Assembly (NCBI GenBank): GCA_947591045.1
Contig: CANQCV010000004.1
Coordinates: 8,090 to 72,089, forward strand
DNA length: 64,000 nt
From: an uncultured Clostridia bacterium
GTDB taxonomy: Bacteria; Bacillota; Clostridia; TANB77; CAG-508
Direction: 5' to 3'
Made by a program: the position numbers and the translations under genes. Positions 7,285 through 9,650 of the stretch are shown here, in pieces. How positions within the stretch are numbered: position 1 is the first letter of the stretch; each line of letters starts with the position of its first letter. Under the pieces are notes generated by a model that was given only the letters and a program-made list of their open reading frames with translations, did no database searches and was not told where the DNA came from.

Positions 7285-9650
7285 ATTTTTCTATTTTATT
7301 TTTTTATTTTATCATATTTAAAATTTTTAATCAAATATTTAATTACATTTTTAAAATTTTATTTTTTATGTTTTTTATTTTAAATTTTATATTTGAATTT
7401 TAATTTTATTTTTTTACTTTAATTTTTATTTTAAAAAATTTTTGATTTAATTTCTTAATTTTAAAATTTTCAATTTTTATTTTTTTGTTTTAAAAATTTT
7501 TCTATTTTTCTATTTTTTATTTTTTAAATTTAAAATTTTAATTTTGTTTTTTATTTCTCTTTTTAATTTTCATTTTAGTTTTTTATTTTTTACTTTTTAC
7601 TTTTTTATTATTTTAATTTGTATTTTATTTTCTAATTTTTATTTTTAATTTTATTTATTTTCTATTTTTGTTTTAAATTATTTTTATTTATTTGTTTTTA
7701 TTTTTCTTCTTATTATATTTTTCTATATATTTTTATATAATTTTTTTATTATTTTTTTATACATTCTTTTTATCTATTTTATTATTTTTATATTACTCTA
7801 CATTTTTGTTTTTTCCTATTTTGTTTTTATATTCTTACTCTTTTTTATCTTGTTTTTATAAAATCTATTATGGTTGCATAATTTTGTCATTTTGTATATT
7901 CGTGAACAAAAAGCAAGACTCTTTTAGTTCATTTTTCCTAATACTTCGCAAGCATCTTTGATTTATGTAACCTTTCCCGTTCTCACATGTATTATGATGG
8001 CTGTTTTTCATTTTTCTTTTCATCCGAAGTTTTTCCAGTTTCGTTTTTTTAATTACTATCTTACTTTTTATACAACTTGATATTACTTTTAATAGTTTTG
8101 AGTACACTTTCTTTCAACTATATCAATTTTTATGTGAAAATATGATTTTACTTTTTGGCAAATGTCGTTTTGATAAAATTCATGATACTTTTGAGCGTTT
8201 TTAGATAGTTTTAACCTCATTACTATTTTAAAATTAATTTTGTTTTTATTTTTACTTTTTCCTTTGTTTTTTATTTTTGTCTATTACTTTTTATAATAAT
8301 TATATAATAATTGTTATTTTATTTTTTTCTATTTCTCTTTTTTATTTTTTTTAATTTATTTTTTCGAATATTTTTTTAATCTTCAAAATATTTTTTAAGT
8401 TTAGTTTTTATTTTTTTGATTGTAAATTTTATTTTTGAGTTTTTAATTTTATTTTTTTCTTTAACTTTTTATTTTAACATTTCATTTTAAAAAATTTTTT
8501 TGTTTTAATTTCTTTATTTTAAAATTTTCAATTTTTATTTTTTTGTTTTAAAAATTTTTCTGATTTTATTTTTCTATTTTTTTATTTTTTAAATTTAAAA
8601 TTTTAATTTTGTTTTTCATTTCTCATTTTAATTTTTATTTTAGTTCTTTATTTTTTACTTTTTATATTTTTATTATTTTAATTTATATTTTATTTTCTAA
8701 TTTTTATTTTTAATTTTTTTATTTTCTATTTTTGTTTTAAATTATTTTTATTTTTTTATTTTTGTTTTTCTTTTTATAATAGTTTTTTATAATTATTTAT
8801 TATTTTTTTATATAAATTAATGTTATTTTTTATACAATCTTTTATTCATTTTATTTTTTATTTATATTACTCTATTTTTTGTTTTTTACTATTTTATTTT
8901 TATATTCTTTCTCTTTTCTTATTTTGTCTTTATAAAATCTATTATGATTGCATAATTTTGTCATTTTGTATATTTGTGAACAAAAATCAATACTCTTTTA
9001 GTTTCTTTCTCCTATCATCTCATAAACATTTTTAATTTATGTAGACTTGTGCATTTTTACATGTCTTTATTCTATCGTTTTCTATTTTTCTTTTTATCCG
9101 AAGTTTTTCCAGTCCCGTTTTTAAAATTACTATTTTATTTTTTATACGATTTGATATTACTTTTAACAGTTTTGAGTATCTTTCCTTTCAACTACATCAA
9201 TTTTTGTACAAAATATATTTTTACTTTTTGCCAAATATCATTTTGATAGATTTCATGTCATTTTTGACTGTTTTTTTATGGCTTTGACCTTATTACTATT
9301 TTAAAATTAATTTCATTTTTATTTTCGTTTTTTTCCTTGTTTTTTGATTGTGGTTTATTATTTTTGGTAATAACTATATAATAATTGTTATTTTATTTTT
9401 ATTATTTTATTTAATTTATTTTTTCAAATGTTTTTTTTATATTTAAAATATTTTTTGATTTTTTTGTTTTTTGTTTTTTTGTTTTAAATTTTATGTTTGA
9501 ATTTTTAATTTTATTTTTTACTTTAATTTTTCATTTCTGATTTTAATTTTTTTAATTTTAAATTTTCAATTTCTATTTTTTACTTTTTACTTTTAATTTT
9601 TTACTATTTATTTTTTATTTTATTACTGTTTTATCGTTGTTAATAGTTTT
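7285..9650. repeat. tandem repeat, unit ~1.04-1.07 kb, ~2.2 copies. Non-coding, extremely T-rich on the + strand.
   Basis: Landmarks recur: AAATCTATTATG at 7861 and 8935; AAAATTTTCAATTTTTATTTTTTTG at 7463, 8521 and (diverged) 9559. Each unit is ~700 bp of near G+C-free T-tract DNA plus a ~370-bp more complex core (7857-8225, 8931-9300). Confidence 0.85.

Follow-up and report, generated by a model that had tools for sequence, protein, structure and literature searches.

We analysed a 64,000-nucleotide stretch of DNA (hereafter the window) from an uncultured Clostridia bacterium of the TANB77/CAG-508 lineage (assembly GCA_947591045.1, contig CANQCV010000004.1), in which tadA (6813-7268, minus strand) and dinD (9758-10618, plus strand) are separated by a gene-free tract of 2.37 kb at 7285-9650. 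Both gene names, as given by an initial annotation made from the sequence alone, agree with NCBIfam equivalog models (183 bits against a cutoff of 150 for TadA; 329 bits against a cutoff of 242 for DinD). Our analysis identifies it as a short array, two units long, that belongs to a previously unrecognised, lineage-specific non-coding satellite family. Going beyond the initial annotation, comparison with relatives places the core of the repeat in a genus-wide family located near the origin of replication, oriC.

The array extends from the tadA promoter region to the dinD promoter and contains 2.2 units with a tandem period of 1,073-1,074 bp. Blocks of the units are 75-93% identical to one another; BLAST aligns the overlap of the two copies at 80.4% identity across 1,345 nt with gaps counted, and the two cores are 81% alike. 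Each unit joins a core of 24-26% G+C (GC) content, ~330 bp long by the family profile, to a spacer of ~700 bp. The initial annotation had described a T-rich tandem repeat almost devoid of G and C, and the spacers (7285-7856, 8226-8930 and 9301-9650) indeed have a GC content of 7-10%, with 67-69% T and 22-24% A on the plus strand. Tandem Repeats Finder (TRF) resolves the spacer into a degenerate repeat of ~7 nt, TTTTATT. The initial annotation placed the cores at 7857-8225 and 8931-9300, and the family profile, which is oriented along the pyrimidine-rich strand, places them at 7874-8203 (core 1; nhmmer E=7e-19) and 8944-9275 (core 2; nhmmer E=2.7e-15), both on the plus strand. The same cores are found at E=1.5e-14 and E=1.6e-12 by R1, a sequence-only covariance model. 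With the profile limits, the ultra-AT spacers lie at 7285-7873 in the partial first unit (GC ~7-10%, T ~69% on the plus strand), at 8204-8943 in the complete unit and at 9276-9650 in the partial third unit. The tract has no second of its kind in the 1.28-Mb, 28.5% GC assembly, whose remaining low-GC windows are coding.

Pieces of the core are also present at 90-99% identity in sequencing runs of gut metagenomes from other samples (X5-X7), so the sequence is not a one-off assembly product. Strains from other samples are 5-10% divergent in the core vs ~1% in tadA. Another run, X1, contains 96% of the sampled words from window positions 6800-10700; none of its contigs covers the core (7845-8235), and those that cover tadA come from diverged relatives only, which is probably not biological. 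An exact-match scan of JGI metagenome contigs returned no match.

Several congeners of the source organism have periodic GC dips upstream of tadA as well: 3 units in genome G014, 2 in G009 and 3 of ~520 bp in G018. BLAST and nhmmer searches of the relatives with the window core alone found nothing. Every unit, however, contains exactly one TCCG(A/T)(A/T)R motif, and anchoring the units on this motif exposed their homology. The resulting alignment of units from four species shows five short blocks, A to E, in fixed order and at fixed spacing on the pyrimidine-rich strand. Block A (TTGTCATTTTGT, consensus TTGTCTTTTTGT) lies at 7884-7895 in the first copy and 8958-8969 in the second, with ~100 nt to block B; it falls within the segment TTTGTCATTTTGTATATT(C/T)GTGAACAAAAA that had been singled out earlier as the best conserved and that is present where it had been placed (around 7884-7912 and 8958-8986). 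Block B (consensus TTATGTnTAC) reads TTTATGTAACC at 7962-7972 and TTTATGTAGAC at 9036-9046, followed after ~50 nt by block C (ATCCGAAGTTTTT, consensus ATTCCG(A/T)T(A/G)Y.TTT) at 8022-8034 and 9096-9108. Block D (consensus AGTTTAC) comes ~65 nt after block C and ~80 nt ahead of block E, the last block (consensus CTTTTTGACAAT), which reads CTTTTTGGCAAAT at 8151-8163 and CTTTTTGCCAAAT at 9224-9236. All of these positions are on the plus strand.

Conservation is concentrated in the blocks. Across 50 unique units TTATGTnTAC is conserved at 94-98% and TCCG at 96-100%, whereas the other core columns show 50% identity between sources against 40% expected from composition. The units have no conserved palindrome. 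Alignments of spacers between species do not surpass reversed-sequence controls: permissive BLAST scores are huge and those of the reversed control are equal, so that we reject spacer homology between species and regard the likeness as compositional only. Block B may resemble the XerD arm of the Firmicutes dif site (TTATGTAAACT), which offers a possible lead; a 28-bp dif-like site could not be built around block B, and a scan of the genome with the B. subtilis dif consensus found nothing convincing.

Using these blocks, we searched a genus set of 38 genomes with a hit cut-off of E<=1e-4 for the models. The strict pattern TTATGTNNNCN{44,56}TCCGWWRYNTTT matches in 19 of the 38 genomes, vs 2 matches for the reversed control, and R1 matches in 26 genomes. 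An nhmmer profile built from 41 units recovers each of them (E=1e-7 to 1e-33) in a single orientation per array and, over the window's own genome, returns the two window copies only. Unit periods across the genus range from 0.5 to 1.1 kb and arrays from 2 to at least 8 head-to-tail units (8 in G011, 7 in G010, 4 in G001). The single-contig genome G031 has 3 units located 1-6 kb from parB. Twelve genus assemblies are without a model match. One of them, the single-contig genome G023, has no significant match; it carries a 5.6-kb periodic low-GC block at the locus near parB that most arrays occupy, with 7 weak colinear model matches ~795 bp apart. Another six have no parB contig, and four break within ~1.2 kb of parB. 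The remaining one, G019, is free of arrays both at its tadA locus and for 3.4 kb downstream of parB. Beyond the genus, the strict pattern yields convincing units in a few genomes from two further genera of its family; other families of the order gave none, and R1 has no match in a sample of 101 family genomes. The recognisable family is therefore young or fast-evolving. Our literature searches found no description of such arrays.

The window includes oriC itself. To its right lie dnaA (41103-42440, plus strand), dnaN, a recF-like gene and gyrB (45271-47184); to its left, on the minus strand, are rnpA, yidC, jag, mnmE, mnmG, rsmG, parA (33409-34197) and parB (32525-33385). DnaA boxes with at most one mismatch cluster at 41033-41045 and 42542-42700, which puts the tract ~32 kb to the left of oriC. 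Every array whose flanks could be placed sits in a gene-free gap no more than ~35 kb from oriC, and the arrays are confined to ~50 kb around oriC; the genomes measure 1.3-1.7 Mb. Placed on the genes of the window, the flanks of the relatives' arrays fall at 22.7-33.4 kb (the parB locus) or at 53-57 kb (the gyrA locus). The first of these is the main locus and accounts for almost all arrays: it lies between an acyl-CoA-dehydratase-activase-like gene (window 22670-26998) and a tRNA-Ser pair, a gene for a 165-aa protein and parB, ~9 kb from oriC, and in most relatives the array is 1-6 kb from parB. The gyrA locus, on the right of oriC next to gyrA and a dnaD-like gene, is occupied in G018 and in G397, a genome of another genus, and the tadA locus is occupied in the window's genome (G000), G014, G009 and G018. 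The tadA tract of the window is a relocated member of the family. Both the parB site and the gyrA-side site are also in use in up to two other genera of the family. The two arrays on the right of oriC have the opposite orientation to the left-hand ones. In every case the leading strand is therefore the purine-rich one, which runs co-directionally with the neighbouring genes.

Many arrays are found at contig ends, and we conclude that the satellite systematically breaks assemblies. Because the arrays break short-read assemblies, their true length is probably underestimated. Contigs that end within ~1 kb of parB or tRNA-Ser, or inside an array, are G003:C96, G017:C64, G026:C92, G034:C145, G336:C1 and G434:C5, and the array loci with such contig ends include L098, L100, L101 and L105-L111. 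The copy number in G000 itself is taken from a short-read metagenome assembly. This, the frequent ending of contigs in the relatives' arrays and one contig of run X7 that fuses copy-1-like with copy-2-like sequence are what might be expected of a collapsed, expanded or chimeric repeat. We nevertheless regard an assembly artefact as extremely unlikely: the units differ by 20% and are easy to assemble, one contig joins both edges of the array to unique genes, the sequence recurs in other samples, and the single-contig genomes G031 and G023 bear arrays at the main locus.

We then looked for a product of the tract. Its spacers and cores have no 3-base periodicity, even locally (z of -1.1 to 0.5), compared with z=6.9 for tadA, z=17.6 for dinD and z=10.3 for an equally AT-rich coiled-coil gene of the same genome. 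The two window copies have no open reading frame (ORF) in common, in agreement with the initial annotation, and no frame is preserved across the 41 family units, whose pyrimidine-rich strand is equally open in all three frames. The longest ORFs match neither Pfam nor PHROGs. No small ORF for a hydrophobic peptide is conserved, no frame spanning the anchor motif stands out, and the ATG of block B is followed by TAA in the window. On the basis of periodicity, frames and both family searches, a coding tract was rejected. The earlier suggestion of a decayed repeated gene fares little better, whether taken as a tandemly duplicated gene or as an island remnant eroded by AT-biased mutation. The purine-rich tadA strand of the array does mimic the coding-strand composition of the genome, dinD matches a phage protein family, and a ttcA-like gene of the relatives is missing here. 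However, with no trace of periodicity, three equally open frames of which none is preserved, a B-C distance that varies between 70 and 72 nt, no protein-family match, and the same blocks in at least 27 genomes but never an intact version of the gene, we consider such an origin very unlikely.

The initial annotation had also proposed an array of non-coding RNAs. Rfam searches of the window give scores above the gathering threshold to tRNAs alone; a permissive scan of the tract (E<=5) yields nothing beyond a chance microRNA match, and the same kind of scan over four arrays of relatives yields none. RNAalifold on 50 unique cores predicts zero base pairs on either strand (energy 0.0). With both Rfam and RNAalifold negative, a structured RNA was rejected. 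A sigma-70 promoter in the core was likewise rejected, as block E has a TTGACA without a -10 element at the right spacing. What might still be imagined is that each core is transcribed as an RNA gene, or that the array gives one long transcript, unstructured and rich in A or U, in which the blocks are signals at the RNA level. Tandem small RNA genes are known from other bacteria, and at all loci the purine-rich strand of the array continues the sense strand of whichever genes adjoin it (tRNA, parAB, gyrA or tadA), so that read-through would yield an A-rich RNA. Such a transcript is nonetheless unlikely. Because 65-75% of the bases belong to one class, the potential for pairing is small; no promoter position within the cores is common to more than ~30% of units, and terminator-like sites are absent from the tract. 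In addition, the promoter-like sites of the flanking genes fire outward from the array here, and in G001 an intrinsic terminator stands between tRNA-Ser and the array. The first of these promoter-like sites, for tadA, lies at the left edge of the tract (7306-7334, minus strand; TTGATT, 17 nt, TG-n-TAAAAT), and the same 15-nt motif occurs upstream of tadA in G018; the second, for dinD, lies past the right edge (9674-9702, plus strand; TTGACC, 17 nt, TATAAT) and has 11 of 12 matches.

Properties of the DNA itself were examined as well. T-tracts had been noted to recur every 5-11 nt and taken to suggest intrinsic bending. The spacing is borne out, with a median of 7 nt and most intervals at 5-9 nt, but bending is not: the T-tract spectrum has peaks at 6-8 nt that barely exceed shuffled controls and none at 10-11 nt. 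Helically phased bent DNA was therefore rejected. No DnaA box with at most one mismatch is found in 7285-9650 and no rep gene is adjacent, and a DnaA-box cluster or iteron-type origin was rejected on these grounds. An integrated mobile element at the tRNA gene finds no support: there is no integrase between tadA and tRNA-Arg and no set of tRNA 3'-end repeats at the edges.

The reading that we tentatively favour, although it falls somewhat short of probable, is that the blocks are putative protein-recognition sites and that the array serves as a DNA-level platform in the origin domain. This reading follows from the combination of selection that is seen only on short blocks with the absence of a detectable product. 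The conserved blocks would be recognised by a putative sequence-specific DNA-binding protein, and the array would act as DNA itself, a multi-copy platform to organise, anchor or segregate the origin region, with the easily melted AT spacers keeping the sites apart. Unequal recombination and slippage would shift both copy number and spacer sequence, which would explain the divergence of the units here and the differing unit lengths in relatives. Among the possibilities raised by the initial annotation, a structural or nucleoid-organising element is thus the one now tentatively favoured, by the cross-species blocks, the oriC confinement and the lack of a product.

Several observations weigh against such a platform. 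The blocks are non-palindromic and match none of the binding consensuses that we tested (parS and the DnaA box). G019, the closest relative with an assembled locus, has no array at either site, and the element may therefore be dispensable. Strains diverge faster in the core than in tadA, which suggests weak constraint outside the blocks. Arrays vary in size from 2 to at least 8 copies and use three loci, as in selfish or neutral repeats, and the origin-proximal clustering could result from local spread rather than selection.

A selfish or neutral satellite without host function would resize by unequal crossing-over in tolerant gene-free gaps; its blocks would serve the spread of the repeat, for example if a trans-acting recombinase or integrase recognised them, or would reflect descent and local homogenisation. 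We rank this possibility nearly as likely as the DNA platform. Beyond the patchy distribution, the variable size, the three different loci, the fast divergence of the core between strains and the empty sites of G019, it is favoured by the tRNA neighbours of the arrays (tRNA-Arg here and two tRNA-Ser genes at the main locus), tRNA genes being typical integration targets, and by G010, where arrays flank the tRNA pair on both sides. Spacers that are alignable by composition only fit as well, and the array here shares its gap with dinD, the gene for a protein that matches a phage family. A satellite without function has more difficulty with the blocks: ~14 near-invariant positions across three genera, in a core that is otherwise almost randomised, need selection. 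We found neither integrase nor attachment (att)-type direct repeats at the array edges, and the phage and plasmid records searched with the core contain no relatives. Confinement to ~50 kb around oriC together with the orientation flip is unexpected for a freely moving element, and small streamlined genomes nonetheless carry up to 8 kb of array.

The proximity of most arrays to parB raises the question of chromosome segregation. The ParB of the window aligns normally to solved ParB/Spo0J structures, and ParA is also present. No parS site within 3 mismatches of TGTTTCACGTGAAACA is found in the tract or in the 1.28-Mb assembly; the tract does not contain the parS palindrome TGTTNCACGTGNAACA, the genome has zero occurrences of TCACGTGA, and CACGTG occurs a single time. 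Across the genus, parS-like matches are at control level. Of 101 family genomes, three have the exact 14-bp parS core, and no single-contig genome of the genus has it. In two of those three genomes (G434 and G336) perfect parS sites lie at mnmE/mnmG, in or next to mnmG, which is their classical location, and the contigs break directly after tRNA-Ser, so that arrays and parS may coexist in genomes that keep parS. A search for a substitute, in the form of another GC-containing palindrome, found only tRNA-type stems. Blocks B and D may resemble parS half-sites.

Since ParAB is kept while canonical parS is nearly lost, it is tempting to regard the arrays as the chromosomal centromere or origin-anchoring locus of the family, with the invariant blocks as loading sites for the machinery of segregation or organisation. 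A ParB whose site use has changed, or a partner protein, could be that machinery. We consider a centromere rather unlikely, as the units lack a palindrome and the genomes that keep parS may also carry arrays. If true, it would make the arrays a bacterial counterpart of eukaryotic centromeric satellite DNA.

An exact 17-nt direct repeat (TTTATTTTATCATATTT) at 7303-7319 and 11041-11057, in the promoter regions of tadA and tRNA-Arg(CCU), is the only long direct repeat between these two genes, and the same motif occurs upstream of tadA in G018; it is probably a shared extended -10 promoter type and not an att site. A ttcA-like PP-loop gene (MQKILGYLRKAIEHY...) that most congeners have between tRNA-Arg and phosphoglucomutase is missing at window 11020-11155, and dinD lies on the opposite side of tRNA-Arg from the usual place of that gene. 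Window positions 1-6600 form a prophage- or island-like block adjoining tRNA-Ser(CGA), with genes for a tyrosine integrase (5446-6582), a partial MazF/PemK toxin domain, an S24/HTH repressor, DUF739 and PIN-domain proteins; relatives have dnaX and a membrane-protein gene downstream of tadA in its place. On the other side of oriC, between gyrB and the gyrA homologue (~53.3 kb), window 48384-51166 contains very AT-rich genes and one for a TraG-type P-loop ATPase (49307-51166), which points to insertion of a conjugative element no more than 10 kb from oriC.

Among bacteria, satellites that are both long and non-coding are rare, and no role is known to have been assigned to any of them. The arrays offer a testable case, with near-invariant motifs, a position around oriC that is shared across genera, an orientation that follows replication, and a host with ParAB and no recognisable parS. 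If a protein binds the blocks, it would show how the origin is organised or segregated in common uncultured gut bacteria. In practical terms, the arrays explain the recurrent contig breaks beside parB in metagenome-assembled genomes of this group.

We compared the arrays with four known systems. Like the LDR (ldr/rdl) type I toxin-antitoxin repeats of E. coli, they consist of intergenic direct tandem repeats of ~0.5-1 kb, and in both cases T-rich stretches could encode hydrophobic peptides; unlike LDR, the array units have no conserved small ORF, start codon, frame, promoter or antisense-RNA structure. With iteron origins and sopC centromeres they share direct repeats that combine a short recognition sequence (putative here) with easily melted AT-rich DNA. 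Iterons and sopC, however, have units of 20-45 bp at helical spacing beside a rep or par gene, whereas the array repeats are kilobase-sized, have no linked rep gene and lie 32 kb from the real oriC. Clusters of parS in ParABS systems are likewise origin-proximal, non-coding, multi-copy and usually near parAB; in the arrays the 16-bp parS palindrome is absent, and the units are 10-50 times the spacing of a parS cluster. The fourth system is that of prokaryotic satellites. The survey by Subirana and Messeguer (2019; PMC6749651) describes most of them as short and many as encoding amino-acid repeats, and reports long non-coding repeat families only in Leptospira interrogans and Methanocella conradii. 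The arrays resemble such non-coding satellites in being head-to-tail, non-coding and chromosomal and in changing their sequence fast between species, and they differ in having core-plus-spacer units of 0.5-1.1 kb with blocks conserved across genera, and in being tied to three gaps around oriC in an orientation fixed by replication.

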